A stretch of DNA of 4,949 bases from a virus (taxonomy: Duplodnaviria > Heunggongvirae > Uroviricota > Caudoviricetes), in IMG/VR virus record IMGVR_UViG_2529292882_000009, one strand, 5' to 3'. The notes beneath the pieces are model-generated. The model was not told the DNA's origin. It ran no database searches and was given only the letters and a program-made list of their open reading frames with translations. Shown here piece by piece: positions 1 through 4,949 of this stretch. Position 1 is the first letter of the stretch. The number at the start of each line of letters is the position of its first letter. A program made the translations under genes and the position numbers.

Positions 1-52
1 AATCCGCCTTAAATAACAGTTTGTTGCAGTTTTTACAGCGAATTGATTTCAT
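1..52 (-). CDS. com: N-terminal 17 codons (MKSIRCKNCNKLLFKAD) of a small Cys-rich zinc-finger protein resembling phage Mu Com, the translational activator of mom; gene continues beyond the window start
   Basis: Reverse complement of 1..52 reads ATG AAA TCA ATT CGC TGT AAA AAC TGC AAC AAA CTG TTA TTT AAG GCG GAT. AGGAGG Shine-Dalgarno (rc of 57..62) lies about 4 nt upstream of the ATG (rc of 50..52). The CxxC motif at residues 6-9 and the position immediately downstream of the invertase match the Mu gin-com-mom layout as I recall it. Too short for the ORF track; partial. Confidence 0.5.
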   Translation of the reverse strand, partial: MKSIRCKNCNKLLFKAD

Positions 53-134
53 CTCACCTCCTTTGCATCAATTCGCCACTATCTTAAAAAACATCGTGGG
101 TTAAGTGTGGTTATTAGGGCATAATCGATCTGTA
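53..134 (-). promoter_or_regulatory. Promoter/leader region for the Com-like gene (mom-operon-type, activator-dependent weak promoter)
   Basis: On the minus strand: candidate -10 TAAGAT (rc of 81..86), preceded by a T6 tract (rc of 86..91), candidate weak -35 ACCACA (rc of 106..111) with a suboptimal 19-bp spacer, then AGGAGG and ATG. Promoter elements are assigned by eye and by recollection of the Mu mom promoter (poor -35, T-tract in spacer); not experimentally anchored. Confidence 0.4.
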
Positions 135-161
135 TTACCGATCGATTTGATTGATTCGATC
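127..161. promoter_or_regulatory. Cluster of three GATC (Dam methylation) sites within 35 bp, upstream of the mom-type promoter and overlapping the invertase 3' end
   Basis: GATC at 127..130, 140..143 and 158..161, each inside an ATCGAT or CGATCG palindrome. The last two lie inside the final codons of the invertase (stop at 135..137). In Mu, three clustered GATC sites upstream of the mom promoter are the methylation-sensitive OxyR (MomR) repression site (established knowledge, recalled). Confidence 0.5.
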
Positions 162-728
162 GTCGTTTTCTATATGCGTTCGTTTCGCAGGGTGTTTTTT
201 ATACAGAGTTGACAGGGCCACATCGTAGATCAATGCGACCTGCTTGCGGGGGATTCCTTGTGCTAATAAACGCCCGGCCTGCTCCCACTCTGCTTTGGTT
301 AGTTTAGGTGGTCGCCCACCAATACGGCCTTTATTTCTGGCGGCAGCAAGTCCAGCCATCGTTCGCTCGATAATTAGTTCTCGTTCCATTTCAGCCAGAG
401 CACCCATAACGTGGAAGAAAAAACGCCCCATTGGAGAAGATGTGTCTATGTTGTCGGTCAGACTGCGAAAATTAATCCCTCGCTCCCGTAGTTCCCCGAC
501 GAGAGAAATCAGATGTTTCATACTTCGCCCGAGGCGATCCAGTTTCCAGACAACCAGCGTGTCACCTTTTTGAAGGCGCTTTAAAGCGCGTTTTAATCCC
601 GGTCGGTCTGTCTTTGTCCCGCTTAATTTATCTTCAAATATTTGTTCACATCCTGCACAAACAAGAGCGTTTCGTTGCAGGTCTGTATTCTGGTCATTTG
701 TTGATACCCTTATATAGCCAATCAGCAC
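135..728 (-). CDS. gin: Serine-recombinase DNA invertase, Gin/Pin/Cin/Hin family (resolvase-like catalytic domain plus C-terminal HTH)
   Basis: 197-aa ORF; N-terminus MLIGYIRVSTNDQNTDLQRNAL contains the catalytic-serine motif (YIRVST) typical of Gin/Pin/Cin/Hin invertases; C-terminal GRPPK...AIYDVALSTLYKK region matches the HTH DNA-binding domain. Start is GTG (rc of 726..728) with GGGAG Shine-Dalgarno (rc of 736..740) 7 nt upstream. Symbol gin is chosen because of the Mu-like neighbours (Com-like gene, GATC cluster); a Pin- or Cin-type orthologue cannot be excluded without alignment. Confidence 0.95.
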   Translation of the reverse strand: MLIGYIRVSTNDQNTDLQRNALVCAGCEQIFEDKLSGTKTDRPGLKRALKRLQKGDTLVVWKLDRLGRSMKHLISLVGELRERGINFRSLTDNIDTSSPMGRFFFHVMGALAEMERELIIERTMAGLAAARNKGRIGGRPPKLTKAEWEQAGRLLAQGIPRKQVALIYDVALSTLYKKHPAKRTHIENDDRINQIDR

Positions 729-781
729 TCTGGATCTCCCGTTTAAAAGCGCAAATCATGCCATGCAGGCCGGAAACAGCC

Positions 782-1753
782 ATTATCCAAAACCTCGGTT
801 TGCAGGAAACGGTAAATCAGGCTTCTGGCGCATTACAGAAAAAACAGAACGGTGCAGATATTCCGGGAAAAGATACCTTCACCAAAAATATTGGTGCCTG
901 CCGCGCATATAGCGCATGGCTGAATATTGGTGGCGATAGTCAGGTCTGGACAACCGCGCAATTTATTTCGTGGCTGGAGAGTCAGGGAGCATTTAACCAT
1001 CCTTACTGGATGTGCAAAGGCTCATGGGCTTATGCAAATAATAAGGTCATTACAGATACAGGTTGCGGAAATATTTGTCTTGCAGGTGCTGTGGTGGAAG
1101 TTATTGGCACTCGCGGCGCAATGACCATACGCGTTACTACGCCGAGCACGTCCAGCGGTGGCGGAATTACTAACGCTCAATTCACTTATATTAATCATGG
1201 TGATGCTTATGCTCCTGGCTGGCGAAGAGACTACAACACGAAAAACCAGCAGCCTGCATTTGCTTTAGGGCAAACAGGAAGCAGGGTTGCAAATGATAAA
1301 GCTGTTGGCTGGAACTGGAATAGCGGCGTTTATGATGCAGATATCAGTGGCGCATCGACATTAATCCTCCACTTCAATATGAATGCGGGGAGTTGCCCTG
1401 CTGTACAGTTCCGCGTGAATTACAGGAACGGCGGTATTTTTTATCGTTCAGCGCGTGATGGTTATGGATTTGAGGCTAACTGGTCAGAGTTTTACACCAC
1501 GACCCGCAAACCCTCTGCGGGAGATGTTGGTGCATACACGCAGGCAGAATGTAACTCAAGGTTTATTACAGGTATTCGCCTTGGCGGTCTGTCATCTGTT
1601 CAGACATGGAATGGTCCCGGCTGGTCTGACAGGTCAGGTTATGTCGTTACGGGTTCAGTTAACGGAAACCGTGATGAATTAATTGATACAACTCAGGCAA
1701 GGCCAATTCAGTATTGCATTAATGGAACGTGGTATAACGCGGGGAGTATTTAA
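782..1753 (+). CDS. Silent alternative tail-fibre C-terminal variable cassette (S'-like); no start of its own, would be fused to the constant fibre N-terminus after inversion
   Basis: The ORF track extends this frame back to 614, but 614..781 overlaps the invertase 5' end and has no fibre-like sequence. Real homology starts in the inverted repeat, where IQNLGLQETVN (782..814) is identical to the same peptide in the expressed fibre. Gly/Asn/Trp/Tyr-rich fibre-tip composition; ends RPIQYCINGTWYNAGSI, similar to the expressed fibre end. Stop TAA 1751..1753. Confidence 0.8.
   Translation: MIQNLGLQETVNQASGALQKKQNGADIPGKDTFTKNIGACRAYSAWLNIGGDSQVWTTAQFISWLESQGAFNHPYWMCKGSWAYANNKVITDTGCGNICLAGAVVEVIGTRGAMTIRVTTPSTSSGGGITNAQFTYINHGDAYAPGWRRDYNTKNQQPAFALGQTGSRVANDKAVGWNWNSGVYDADISGASTLILHFNMNAGSCPAVQFRVNYRNGGIFYRSARDGYGFEANWSEFYTTTRKPSAGDVGAYTQAECNSRFITGIRLGGLSSVQTWNGPGWSDRSGYVVTGSVNGNRDELIDTTQARPIQYCINGTWYNAGSI
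783..816. repeat. Left inverted repeat of the invertible segment (gix-type recombination site)
   Basis: ttatccaaaacctcggtttgcaggaaacggtaaa is 33/34 identical to the reverse complement of 3825..3858. The first 26 bp have gix/hix architecture: two 12-bp half-sites (783..794, 797..808) around a 2-bp core TC (795..796). Confidence 0.9.
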
Positions 1754-1755
1754 TT

Positions 1756-2289
1756 ATGATGCACTTAAAAAATATTACTGCTGGCAACCCTAAGACAAAA
1801 GAGCAATACCAGCTAACGAAACAATTTAACATCAAATGGCTTTATACAGAGGATGGGAAAAACTGGTATGAGGAACAAAAGAACTTTCAGCCTGATACGT
1901 TGAAAATGGTCTATGACCACAACGACGTTATTATTTGTATTGAAAAGGATGTTTCAGCAATTAATCCAGAAGGCGCAAGCGTCGTTGAGGTTCCTGATAT
2001 TACAGCAAATCGCCGGGCTGATATTTCGGGTAAATGGATGTTCAAAGATGGCGTAGTGATAAAGCGAACTTATACCGAGGAGGAACAGAGGCAGCAGGCA
2101 GAGAATGAAAAGCAAAGCCTGTTGCAACTTGTCAGGGATAAAACCCAGCTATGGGACTCACAGCTACGGCTGGGAATCATTTCCGACGAGAATAAACAAA
2201 AATTAACTGAGTGGATGCTCTATGCGCAGAAAGTCGAATCTACAGACACCTCCAGCCTGCCAGTAACATTTCCCGAACAACCTGAATGA
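1756..2289 (+). CDS. Alternative tail-fibre assembly protein / chaperone (U'-like), currently in the silent orientation
   Basis: 177 aa; starts 2 nt after the S' cassette stop; first ~125 aa closely resemble the 2318..2848 product ([22 protein letters not shown] vs [23 protein letters not shown]; shared [18 protein letters not shown]), with a divergent C-terminal third. Family assignment by position and paralogy. Confidence 0.8.
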   Translation: MMHLKNITAGNPKTKEQYQLTKQFNIKWLYTEDGKNWYEEQKNFQPDTLKMVYDHNDVIICIEKDVSAINPEGASVVEVPDITANRRADISGKWMFKDGVVIKRTYTEEEQRQQAENEKQSLLQLVRDKTQLWDSQLRLGIISDENKQKLTEWMLYAQKVESTDTSSLPVTFPEQPE

Positions 2290-2292
2290 GAC

Positions 2293-2312
2293 AAGGCCCG
2301 ATAGCGGGCCTT
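2293..2312. terminator. Hairpin between the convergent chaperone genes; candidate bidirectional terminator
   Basis: aaggcccg (2293..2300), loop atag, cgggcctt (2305..2312): perfect 8-bp GC-rich stem. Followed on the plus strand by aattttta (2313..2320); flanks are less T-rich for the minus strand. Confidence 0.5.
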
Positions 2313-2317
2313 AATTT

Positions 2318-2848
2318 TTATTCAGGCTTTTGTGGCCATTCTGGCTTTGCCGTATCCACACGGCTGACCAGAACACTGTAGCGTTCCCATGACTCCAGTC
2401 GTGCGCGTTCCTCATCCGTCGCCATATTCAGTCTGACAGCGCGTTCCAGTGGCTGAATAACGTTTTCTGCTTCGGAAAGTAACGCGGCCTTTTGTGATTC
2501 GGCCTGTTGTTGTTGCTCGTCTGCCGTATAAATCCGTTTAACCACAGCTCCGTCCTTAAACATCCACTTCCCTGAATCATCGGCACGACGATTGGCTGTT
2601 ATATCTGGAATCTCAACGACGCTAAAGCCTTCGGGATTAAGCGTTGAGGCATCTTTGGTTATGGCAACAATAATATTATTTTCGTCGTATACAATCTTTA
2701 TGGTGTCGTCCTGAAAGTTATTTACTTCTTCATACCAGTTTTTACCGTCTTCGGACCATAACCAGATAACATCAAAATTCTTTGTTAGCTGATATTGTTC
2801 TTTCGTTTTAGGATTTCCAGACTTAATATTTTTTAAATGCTGCATCAT
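2318..2848 (-). CDS. Tail-fibre assembly protein / chaperone (U-like), in the expressed orientation
   Basis: 176 aa; tandem ATG start (rc of 2843..2848) directly abuts the fibre stop codon (TAA, rc of 2849..2851); AGGTG Shine-Dalgarno upstream; paralogous to the 1756..2289 product. Confidence 0.85.
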
Positions 2849-4354
2849 TTACACCTGTGCGACGTTATACCATGTGCCATTGATGTATTTTTGTATTGGC
2901 CTGAAGATGGCTTCATCATCGCCATCTACTTCACCAATGATTCTTAATCCGGTAATTGCGTGTCCGGCTTTTTCATAACGACCACCACGCGCCATCAATT
3001 GAACAACACGTGTGCCAAGTCGGACATCTCTCACATAGCGTGAGTCAAAATTGCCATAATTGCCGGGAATAACTTGCGCACCACAAAGCCAGTTACCGTT
3101 ATTATCCATGTACGCCTGACCATCGGTGCCATTGGCTGTCCTTGAGTTATTAATCATGTAGATGCCAAATTGCTTGTTCCCCAGTCCACCTATCATGAAC
3201 TTTCGGTCGGCGTGATTCTGGCGAAGTAACGCCTGAGCGCTATCAGTGTTAACTATATTTTTCCCAAAGATAGCGTTGTTATCGCGCATCTGAATCCACA
3301 TACCATTACTGCTGTTAATAGCAAAACGGTCTGAAAGTGTCTCCCCTGAAACATTAAGACCACGCCCCATCGAAACAGCGCCAGTAGCGTTATTAATCCA
3401 TAATGGCCTTAATCCGTTATAAGTCCCCATGTTGTCACCGGAGTTTGTCAACATGAAGTATGTATTTGAACCATCATTACGAATAAAGAATCCGTAATTA
3501 CCATAAGCAATACGTAGGCCGTTTGCTGATTTTGATATGACTTCGCCATTTACAATGGCATTGACAAGAACATACAAAGCATCCCATTTAAGATTCATCA
3601 GGTCTTTTGTTGTGGTGCTCTGGCGGCTTCTCCATTTGAAATATTCATTGCCGTTGTCGCCTGTTTCAAACCACATGTATGAATCAGTGTCGCTGTCGGC
3701 ATCATTTTTAAATCCAATCTTTGCCCAGTCAGTATTCCGAATCCAGGCAAGGATTGAGTCGTTTTCAAAAGTAAGTCCGCCGGACAAGGTATCGCCTGTC
3801 TTTTGAACGGCGTTACCAGCCTTGTTTACCGTTTCCTGTAAACCGAGGTTTTGGATAAACAGCGGCTTATTGGGAATATCTGCTCCGTTCCGGTCTTTTG
3901 CCAGACGGGCATTGGCATTATCCATCGCAATTTTCACCGCTTTTGCGGTGGCTGCCAGCGTTTCACTGAGGCTGTCAGTGGCACTGGTTAGCTGAACGAG
4001 TCCTTTTTTGTTCAGGCTGGCATCATAGATATCCAGATTTTCACGTGCTGTACGCTGTGCTGATGCCCCGGCAATTTTAATTTCGCTGAGGTTATTTTTT
4101 ATCAGCAGCGCGTTATTGCTCATAATGGCTTTAATGGACAGTGCAAGCTGGTTTAATTTTGTTTTATCCGGTTGAATACCGGCTTCTTCCAGCGTGTTTA
4201 ATAACTCCGCCTGCACAATATTAAACCAGTCCATGCCGGGCCATGTGATAACATTATTCCCGTCACCTTCTGAAAACCAGCGAACGATAGCACTACGCTG
4301 GGCGGATACGGGCGGCATGACGGTTACGCCGCTGTCGTTATCAATATAAAACAT
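2849..4354 (-). CDS. Tail-fibre protein (S-like): constant N-terminal part (4354..3859) fused across the right inverted repeat to the currently expressed variable C-terminal part (3824..2849)
   Basis: 501 aa; GGAG Shine-Dalgarno upstream; start ATG (rc of 4352..4354) overlaps the upstream gene stop by 1 nt (TAATG). The inverted repeat encodes FIQNLGLQETVN in frame. C-terminal two-thirds are rich in N, G, W, Y as expected for a receptor-binding tip; ends RPIQKYINGTWYNVAQV. Confidence 0.9.
   Translation of the reverse strand: MFYIDNDSGVTVMPPVSAQRSAIVRWFSEGDGNNVITWPGMDWFNIVQAELLNTLEEAGIQPDKTKLNQLALSIKAIMSNNALLIKNNLSEIKIAGASAQRTARENLDIYDASLNKKGLVQLTSATDSLSETLAATAKAVKIAMDNANARLAKDRNGADIPNKPLFIQNLGLQETVNKAGNAVQKTGDTLSGGLTFENDSILAWIRNTDWAKIGFKNDADSDTDSYMWFETGDNGNEYFKWRSRQSTTTKDLMNLKWDALYVLVNAIVNGEVISKSANGLRIAYGNYGFFIRNDGSNTYFMLTNSGDNMGTYNGLRPLWINNATGAVSMGRGLNVSGETLSDRFAINSSNGMWIQMRDNNAIFGKNIVNTDSAQALLRQNHADRKFMIGGLGNKQFGIYMINNSRTANGTDGQAYMDNNGNWLCGAQVIPGNYGNFDSRYVRDVRLGTRVVQLMARGGRYEKAGHAITGLRIIGEVDGDDEAIFRPIQKYINGTWYNVAQV
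3825..3858. repeat. Right inverted repeat of the invertible segment (gix-type recombination site), inside the tail-fibre coding sequence
   Basis: tttaccgtttcctgtaaaccgaggttttggataa; its reverse complement differs from 783..816 by one base (A vs G, partner of position 802). Core dinucleotide at 3845..3846 (GA on plus, TC on minus) matches the left core. Confidence 0.9.
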
Positions 4355-4896
4355 TAGTTATCTCCGTCATGGTAAACAAATTTATAAATCTGATGCGCGG
4401 GTTTATATTTCTCCAGTAAACATTCCAGCGCACCCGATTCATAAACACGTAACGGCGTCAGAACATTATCCAGCACCGTTGCGTTGCGATAATTTTTAAT
4501 ACCGTAAATATTGACCTGCGTAACCCACTGGCCTTCTGTGGAATCCGTCAGCCTGACGGTAAAACCGTACTGCGCAGCCAGCCATTCATAAAAGCGCCTA
4601 CTCAGATTGCCGGTCATACGCATTTTATTCGCGGCAGCCCGCTGGCGTTCGGACAGGGTGCCGTTTTCGCTGGTACAGTCCGGCAACCCCAGAAATGATT
4701 CCCACTCACCCAGATACCAGCGGGATGTGGACGGGAAACGCTCCCGCAGCATTTGCCGCGCATCATCCGCCGCAGTGGCAATCACGTCGCTGATGGCCTG
4801 CGCCAGCGCAGATAATTTGCTGTCGGGGCTTTTATTCCAGGCAAGCCCTGACGGCAGTAATTGCAGAAAGGCCGTCTGATAGGGTGTTACAGCCAT
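4354..4896 (-). CDS. Phage tail/baseplate protein immediately upstream of the tail fibre (Mu gp48 / P2 gpI / YmfQ-like by position)
   Basis: 180-aa ORF (MAVTPYQTAFLQLLPSGLAWNKSPDS...); GGGGA Shine-Dalgarno 7 nt upstream; start ATG (rc of 4894..4896) directly follows the upstream gene stop (TGA, rc of 4897..4899). Function is inferred from gene order in Mu-like tail modules; I cannot confirm the family from the sequence alone. Confidence 0.6.
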   Translation of the reverse strand: MAVTPYQTAFLQLLPSGLAWNKSPDSKLSALAQAISDVIATAADDARQMLRERFPSTSRWYLGEWESFLGLPDCTSENGTLSERQRAAANKMRMTGNLSRRFYEWLAAQYGFTVRLTDSTEGQWVTQVNIYGIKNYRNATVLDNVLTPLRVYESGALECLLEKYKPAHQIYKFVYHDGDN

Positions 4897-4949
4897 TCAA
4901 TTGTCCCCGGTGTTAACAGTTCCGTATTCTCCGAACGCTGGATCTCTGT
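4897..4949 (-). CDS. 3' end (last ~17 codons, ...RDPAFGEYGTVNTGDN, plus stop) of an upstream tail/baseplate gene entering from beyond the window end
   Basis: Open minus-strand frame from the window edge to TGA (rc of 4897..4899), which directly abuts the next ATG, consistent with a translationally coupled late-gene operon. Identity unknown (baseplate J-like by position only). Confidence 0.35.
   Translation of the reverse strand, partial: RDPAFGEYGTVNTGDN

Follow-up and report, generated by a model that had tools for sequence, protein, structure and literature searches.

The two stretches encoding NGADIP in this prophage region each represent one copy of a joint motif of about 21 residues, L-x-K-[DN]-Q-N-G-A-D-I-P-x-K-x-x-F-x-x-N-[ILV]-G, that is conserved among tail fibres and very probably links the proximal shaft of the fibre to interchangeable distal receptor-binding modules. 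The window, by which we mean the whole stretch of 4,949 nucleotides that was analysed, is the invertible G region of a Mu/D108-like prophage and shares 96% nucleotide identity with D108 and Mu over its full 4,949-base length. One copy of the motif, the outer copy, closes the Mu-type constant part of the fibre, and its final codons, F-I-Q-N-L-G-L-Q-E, are the gix crossover site. The other, the inner copy, is part of a portable cassette leader, which comprises the gix-encoded LGLQETV, a short NxAxGALQKxQ stretch and then the motif. Inversion by Gin gives an S' fibre with two 32-residue units in tandem. The inner copy would be the joint at which distal modules are swapped with the general pool of fibre genes, and this exchange would proceed through the island of nucleotide similarity, about 60 nt long, that accompanies the motif. 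Because the distal modules would come from, and exchange with, a pool of fibres built as shaft, motif and module, invertible cassettes would bring their own copy of the motif with them.

Table 1. Features of the window, with positions counted from its first letter.
Feature	Coordinates	Strand	Evidence or remarks
gin, serine DNA invertase	135..728	-	PF00239 (E = 7e-51), PF02796 (E = 2e-17); gin in Mu/D108 annotation
Silent S'v cassette, alternative fibre C-terminus	783..1753	+	Open reading frames, Mu/D108 homology, Mu annotation
gin-proximal gix, 26 bp, TTATCCAAAACCTCGGTTTGCAGGAA	783..808	+	Left arm of inverted repeat; equals the Mu-annotated G-segment boundary
Cassette leader TVNQASGALQKKQ, from gix to inner motif	809..847	+	Resembles the end of the PF03406 (Phage_fiber_2) repeat
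Inner extended joint motif LQKKQ-NGADIPGKDTF-TKNIG, 21 residues	833..895	+	BLASTP alignment
Inner copy, NGADIP codons, in the silent S'v cassette, inside the segment	848..865	+	Kept in Mu, D108, SfMu, P88 and P1
U', assembly protein for the S' fibre	1756..2289	+	PF02413 (E = 2e-36)
U, assembly protein for the S fibre	2318..2848	-	PF02413 (E = 5e-37)
Tail fibre gene S, 501 residues	2849..4354	-	Constant part Sc plus expressed variable part Sv
gix within gene S, 26 bp, coding (F)IQNLGLQE	3833..3858	-	Right arm of inverted repeat
Outer extended joint motif LAKDR-NGADIPNKPLF-IQNLG	3842..3904	-	BLASTP alignment, gix register check
Outer copy, NGADIP codons, in the constant part Sc of S, outside the segment	3872..3889	-	Mu, D108 and SfMu; not in P1/P88 constant parts
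gp48	4354-4896	-	PF10076

As judged by every defining feature that can be read from sequence, the locus is a Mu-type invertible tail-fibre switch of the Din family (Gin/Cin/Pin). The serine invertase gene gin adjoins the invertible segment; two opposed fibre C-termini, each with its own assembly protein, are served by one shared N-terminal part; and the two gix sites are complementary at 25 of 26 positions, one of them inside the fibre reading frame. The inverted repeat to which these sites belong is 34 bp long (783-816 and 3825-3858), with a less perfect extension to 58 nt at 81%. Pfam searches of S returned PF03406 at residues 113-153 and PF21446 at residues 210-320, and the gene is 96% identical to those of D108 and Mu. 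Because gene S is composed of Sc and the expressed Sv, the window is in the G(+) state. In-silico inversion of the window yielded a 488-residue S' that aligned over its full length, with few substitutions, to PDB chain 8JU3 (488 residues, named 'Tail fiber protein S, Tail fiber protein S''), which is presumably the Mu(-) tail fibre structure of Mori et al. (2024). A Mu-type switch is also defined by a recombinational enhancer (sis) bound by Fis and by inversion activity; an enhancer is annotated within cin in the P1 record. A prophage nearly identical to the window is present in E. coli strain PEC422, with its G segment the other way round. The S' gene of that prophage is annotated as a pseudogene.

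A sequence-only reading of the window had drawn attention to AACGGTGCAGATATTCCG (848-865) as matching the reverse complement of 3872-3889, AACGGAGCAGATATTCCC, at 16 of 18 positions. This match is real, and both members encode NGADIP in the fibre frame; a repeat search extends the pair to 26 nt at 85% identity (22/26; 839-864 and 3873-3898). Inverted, non-palindromic 16/18 matches occurred 0.20 times per dinucleotide shuffle of the window, with at least one in 18% of the shuffles, and for this reason the 16/18 DNA match is not significant by itself. On that count the 18-mer could be a chance coincidence that is biologically meaningless. We nevertheless consider such a coincidence extremely improbable, since the 22/26 match was seen in none of 300 shuffles, the two stretches are in frame in both fibre genes, and a hexapeptide common to Sc and S'v arose in just 37 of 20,000 residue shuffles. 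In addition, BLASTP aligned DNANARLAKDRNGADIPNKPLFIQNLG with NQASGALQKKQNGADIPGKDTFTKNIG over 27 residues, of which 13 were identical (E = 8e-6), and both copies are kept across Mu, D108, SfMu and dozens of prophages. The shuffled control that had been proposed leaves the short DNA match marginal, but did not reproduce its 26-nt extension. Given the same hexapeptide, four of the six codons are identical where 2.27 are expected (P = 0.14). As codon identity is no higher than the peptide predicts, the similarity is that of a conserved peptide and not of a fresh DNA copy.

The two copies were also said to be asymmetric about the inverted repeats, and for the 34-bp repeat this is the case: the inner copy begins 32 nt beyond position 816, the outer one 14 nt beyond position 3858. 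The outer copy nearly abuts the PF03406 repeat, which ends …RLAK at residue 153, with NGADIP following from residue 156. The inner copy lies 13 codons beyond gix, after the leader, whose NQASGALQK aligns against DNANARLAK of Sc. In the G(+) window about 3 kb separates the copies, which have opposite orientations; Gin inversion turns them into direct repeats with a spacing of 96 nt, the arrangement found in SfMu, which was deposited in the G(-) state. The expectation that a G(-) fibre would carry the motif twice is borne out by about 60 database clusters of S' proteins of 486 or 488 residues and by chain 8JU3, all of which have both copies. The separation of about 20 residues that had been anticipated was an underestimate, the distance being 32 residues (96 nt) from start to start and 26 residues between the hexapeptides.

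The motif is far more widespread than this locus. A degenerate DNA pattern for NGADI-xx-K-xx-F matched at least 120 loci on viral contigs, with about 21 chance hits estimated for the whole collection, and 124 of the 127 viral-contig sites among the matches listed lay in tail-fibre contexts. Because the pattern required N-G-A-D-I, K and F, consensus statistics at these positions are circular; the flanks outside the pattern were therefore tallied at 111 sites, giving L at -5 in 101, K at -3 in 106, Q at -1 in 97, N at +13 in 100, I, L or V at +14 in 105 and G at +15 in 81. Both copies in the window fit this flank consensus. Upstream of the motif, three classes of sequence were found, namely the PF03406 repeat, a gix-like LGLxET leader and other shaft sequence, and downstream at least 46 different sequence clusters or modules. 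Among species-representative genomes, the extended motif was present at 68 of 124 pattern sites, in the genera Xenorhabdus, Photorhabdus, Morganella, Sodalis and Pectobacterium, and the other pattern sites look like chance, falling for example in ankyrin repeats. Hosts of the motif include Escherichia, Salmonella, Xenorhabdus and Photorhabdus.

Protein-level searches gave a similar picture. The 48-residue junction, compared with 1.84 billion representatives, matched 361 clusters (clustered at 50% identity) at E <= 1e-3 and 92 at E <= 1e-10. The motif is not covered by any Pfam family: the PF03406 model stops at residue 153 (…RLAK), and when the junction peptide was scanned against Pfam, the match was confined to residues 2-17. 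Many tail-fibre families in PHROG match short stretches across the same peptide. The sequence-only reading was to fall if the motif proved to be a common repeat of fibre shafts, and this is essentially the case; with 361 clusters and at least 46 downstream modules the inner copy is not a footprint specific to Mu.

Between fibres that are unrelated on both sides of the motif (4,571 pairs), nucleotide identity was 0.6-0.8 from -15 to +45 around the motif, compared with 0.25-0.30 in the flanks, the value in the 0 to +15 window being inflated by the search pattern. The island of similarity between unrelated fibres is thus about 60 nt in length, and exact runs of identity are usually 8-14 nt. Four of the seven modules found behind gix, leader and motif also occur elsewhere directly behind PF03406 and a single motif, and S'-type modules likewise follow the PF03406 repeat and a single motif in fibres that have no gix-like sequence before the motif. 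These mosaic patterns suggest that modules are exchanged at the motif; a point against it is that the exact runs of 8-14 nt are short for RecA.

The final third of the outer motif coincides with the recombination site. The gix within gene S (gixR) overlaps the extended motif by 17 nt (3842-3858), the crossover dinucleotide included; it begins at the second base of the F codon, a register check showing these 26 nt to be gix, and the crossover dinucleotide falls in the L codon of N-L-G. Because gix sits within the last codons of the motif, Gin inversion always joins the alternative C-termini in frame. A gix or cix site consists of two inverted 12-bp half-sites and a 2-bp core, with AAACC..GGTTT at its centre. 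Among 184 genuine motif sites, 37 were followed by an in-register AAACC..GGTTT, with a mean identity to gix of 20.3/26, and the sites lacking this core averaged 13.2/26. A Gin homologue was found in the same locus for 7 of the 37 sites with a gix-like core and for 13 of the 147 others, the loci holding a few kilobases of flank. In the 26 nt that follow the inner copy, taken in gix register (TTCACCAAAAATATTGGTGCCTGCCG), hand alignment gave 12/26 identity to gix, close to the mean of the coreless sites, and the AAACC..GGTTT core was not found. The use of the inner copy by Gin as a secondary site was ruled out on account of this low identity and the missing palindromic core.

These comparisons bear on the proposal that the inner copy is the scar of an older, offset Gin/Cin crossover or fusion, or was left by a recent local duplication of DNA during capture of the cassette. 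In its favour, the protein similarity runs through the gix region of the outer copy (F-x-x-N-[LI]-G), and on the S' side the DNA homology between P1 and Mu sets in at window position 825, just 23 nt ahead of the inner copy. We find this origin quite unlikely. The sequence after the inner copy resembles gix no better than that after coreless sites does, and codon identity (four of six) is compatible with the 2.27 expected. Moreover, positions 6 and 18 are invariably A and C in the outer copy but variable in inner copies (T/C and G/A); the copies are not undergoing homogenisation. Many unrelated fibres also contain the motif and show the two-copy layout. A recent duplication or gene conversion between the copies was rejected on the codon statistics and on these synonymous differences, fixed between outer and inner copies across lineages. 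Of the earlier suggestion that the inner copy is a footprint or fusion point, what survives is that it marks the joint of the S' module; a Mu-specific scar or an older offset Gin site does not.

The two-copy, 32-residue layout is a general one that recurs in unrelated fibres, consistent with a conserved joint motif. At least two copies of the motif were present in 22 of the best 150 representatives, with a spacing of exactly 32 residues in 15 of 23 cases, and one protein in this set had three. The two-copy fibres have differing N-terminal parts (MDNANARLAKDR, DEQVKTRLEKNQ, MNLIGQKLSKDQ, TESNEAYMAKSQ, GEVNEAFLQKGQ) and several distal modules. Among the two-copy representatives listed with the 32-residue spacing, a gix-like N-[LVI]-G-L-x-[ETDN]-[TA] comes after the first copy. 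An AlphaFold2 monomer of the 488-residue S', built on an alignment of 36 sequences, had a mean pLDDT of 35 and was too unreliable for use. That model hinted at a helix-hairpin-helix-hairpin pattern with a 32-residue period.

In two Mu-like prophages the two copies have been reduced to one. A 456-residue fibre (P0059) reads …ARLAKDRNGADIPGKDTFTKNIGAC, with the Sc copy fused straight to the S'v copy. The contig that encodes it, L003, is the complete tail region of a Mu-like prophage in the G(-) state, with U', silent U and Sv, one remaining gix, and gin; relative to the window inverted in silico, it lacks exactly 96 bp, the crossover of this deletion lying within the shared GCAGATATTCC. Among 5,426 complete E. 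coli genomes, Sc was joined to S'v on seven chromosomes, six of them undeleted and one deleted. The prophage of APEC E19057 (L124) has the same 96-bp deletion as L003 and a different gene beside the prophage end; here too the crossover lies within GCAGATATTCC, one gix stands beside gin, and Sv and U are silent. The deletion is in frame and takes out one gix together with exactly one 32-residue unit, and by it the switch is lost and the G(-) fibre (S' expression) is fixed. Because the product reproduces the single-motif layout of P2-like fibres, the shortened 456-residue fibre is plausibly functional.

The two deleted prophages differ in their closest relatives. Upstream, L003 shows no difference from Mu and the E. 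coli W prophage in 1,011 nt; downstream there are 24 differences from them in 1,421 positions, and its inner copy ends …ATTCCA, as it does in both. The prophage nearest to L124 is the undeleted one of strain 22KM0354, with 5 and 31 differences, and both have the rare …ATACCG; L003 and L124 differ from one another at 86 downstream positions. Since each prophage is closest to a different undeleted relative and shares the inner-copy variant of that relative, the two deletions are apparently independent, this being the simplest reading of the two prophages at hand. Alternatively, a deleted allele may have been transferred, followed by recombination in its flanks. Recombination or slippage between the direct repeats is the probable origin of the deletions. 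The locked allele could also be reached in two steps, with inversion of the G(+) form via the short inverted repeats and then deletion between the two direct gix sites that result; this route leads to an identical product, but was judged less parsimonious than one deletion in G(-), and no intermediate of it was seen.

Two apparently independent, precise, in-frame 96-bp deletions in diverged prophages, the occurrence of the deletion in one of the seven prophages with Sc joined to S'v in complete E. coli genomes, and a product that shares its layout with natural single-motif fibres could together indicate that the pair of copies is kept as a built-in lock, that is, as a selected deletion hotspot offering an exit from phase variation to the G(-) host range. 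We regard selection of this kind as very unlikely: conservation of the joint motif as protein explains each copy alone, so that extra selection is unneeded, there are two cases only, deletions between short direct repeats are a generic product of mutation, and many prophages are decaying, as exemplified by PEC422. It is likewise doubtful, on our reckoning, that the G(-) copies recurrently recombine to leave a working P2-like fibre and an irreversible commitment to G(-), as a favoured escape in some hosts and not as decay. The preferred reading is that both copies are instances of a conserved fibre joint motif.

The window itself is a textbook Mu G-segment host-range switch, in which the repeat reflects this joint motif and has little further significance. 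The feature is ordinary and already known in kind: it is an established idea that module boundaries are marked by short coding motifs conserved between fibre genes that otherwise have nothing in common, and that the crossover sites of invertases are situated within conserved coding sequence. Mosaic sequence motifs of tail fibre genes are reportedly the subject of work by Haggard-Ljungquist and colleagues (174:1462) and by Sandmeier and colleagues (174:3936), both in J Bacteriol in 1992, and of an article by Sandmeier in Mol Microbiol in 1994 (12:343). A full-text literature search, of incomplete coverage, returned nothing relevant on NGADIP, and neither this motif nor the locking deletion was found described. 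In related loci, the recurrent deletion that locks the switch is a minor novel finding: the two copies offer a simple and apparently recurrent way to lose an invertible host-range switch, through a 96-bp deletion that locks the G(-) state. The motif also provides a compact landmark of module boundaries in the tail fibres of Enterobacterales phages, useful for chimeric fibres and, since no Pfam model covers it, for annotation.

Among known systems, the G segments of Mu and D108 have the same gene order, gix sites, 34-bp inverted repeats and both NGADIP positions as the window, from which they diverge in sequence by about 4%. The comparison with related phages that had been called for thus finds both copies in Mu, D108 and SfMu. 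The C segment of P1 and P7 (cin, cix) and the invertible cassette of P88 have an S'-type cassette that is homologous to the window from position 825 or 827 on, and P1 and P88 share with it the leader and the inner motif (LQKNQNGADIPGKDTFTKNIGAC). Their constant parts, in contrast, are without the outer copy: in P1, TINGVSFDGSKNIELTAENLNL precedes the Mu-homologous part of the cassette, and P88 has the lambda-Stf-like VGRDILAKSTVAAVIEYLGLQETV instead. As a consequence, the inverted fibres of P1 and P88 have the motif once. In P1, P88 and lambda-Stf-like fibres the inner copy alone is present, and the leader that accompanies it is always the same; the inner copy therefore travels with the S'-type module, whereas the outer one belongs to the Mu-type constant part. 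Two further P2-like proteins, H of fiAA91-ss and the side tail fibre of PhiR68_2, were matched as well as H of PsP3, the layout having been read from sequence for PsP3 only. In PsP3, gene H has a PF03406 (Phage_fiber_2) repeat, then one motif (NGGDIPDKDLF) and then an S'-type distal domain; no invertase is annotated in the four-gene stretch around it, and, unlike in the window, neither a gix-like sequence nor a second copy is found around the motif. This layout of PsP3 H is the one that the 96-bp deletion recreates in Mu-like prophages.

An exact, in-frame loss of 96 bp between the two copies of the NGADIP-containing joint motif was found in two diverged Mu-like prophages of E. coli, for which the nearest undeleted prophage differs. 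The deletion yields an S' fibre of 456 residues and leaves a single gix site, adjoining gin, with Sv and U permanently silent in both prophages.

Features located in the window and in related prophages
Feature	Position	Source	Context
96-bp deletion	L003:6466-6483	E. coli NOFP01000015.1	Mu-like prophage
96-bp deletion	L124:5061-5078	E. coli APEC E19057, NZ_CP126934.1	Mu-like prophage
G+C-rich hairpin (AAGGCCCGATAGCGGGCCTT), then T-rich run	window 2293-2312		between convergent U' and U

The start of the Sv cassette (window 3795-3832) is a related, degenerate version of the leader/motif unit at 809-865, and in the segments aligned by HMMER for Mu S, ETVNKAGNAVQK-TGDTLSGGLTF of the Sv leader is equivalent to ETVNQASGALQKKQNGADIPGKDTF; because of this resemblance, the inverted repeat reaches 58 nt. 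The motif occurs three times in P0138, a fibre fragment of 220 residues recovered by similarity search, with successive copies 48 and 33 residues apart, and therefore more than two occurrences of the unit are possible. A contig from IMG/VR (2534681627_000024), in which L014:3239-3271 is part of a Mu-like G region, carries a silent cassette with the same leader and motif as the window (VNLASGALQKNQNGADIPDKDRF), but with a different distal module (LSNINVYSKGEVDKKKGMRQY…). A two-motif fibre would be predicted from either orientation in this prophage.

The far ends of the two cassettes are likewise related. Window 1700-1739 and 2863-2902, which encode the very C-terminal ends of S' and S, resemble each other in inverted orientation over 40 nt at 80% (RPIQYCINGTWYN versus RPIQKYINGTWYN), and U' and U have 351 nt in common at 70% (1752-2102 versus 2499-2849). 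Related, chaperone-facing sequence therefore closes both cassettes.

When the window (1-4949) was inverted in silico, its gp48-S'-U' part differed from the E. coli PEC422 prophage (NZ_CM168005.1) at 3 of ~2,430 compared positions. The PEC422 prophage is in the G(-) orientation, opposite to that of the window. The annotation lists its S' as a pseudogene containing an internal stop.

In D108 (~883-908), P88 and three further loci (L014, L026 and L068), the sequence of the gin-proximal gix is TTATCTAAAACC rather than TTATCCAAAACC. This variant creates an in-frame TAA (…TII*NLGLQET) immediately ahead of the silent cassette, whereas the window has CAA (Q) at this position. The TAA may simply stop read-through into the silent cassette. 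At the place equivalent to the intergenic hairpin, rho-independent terminators are annotated on both strands of D108.
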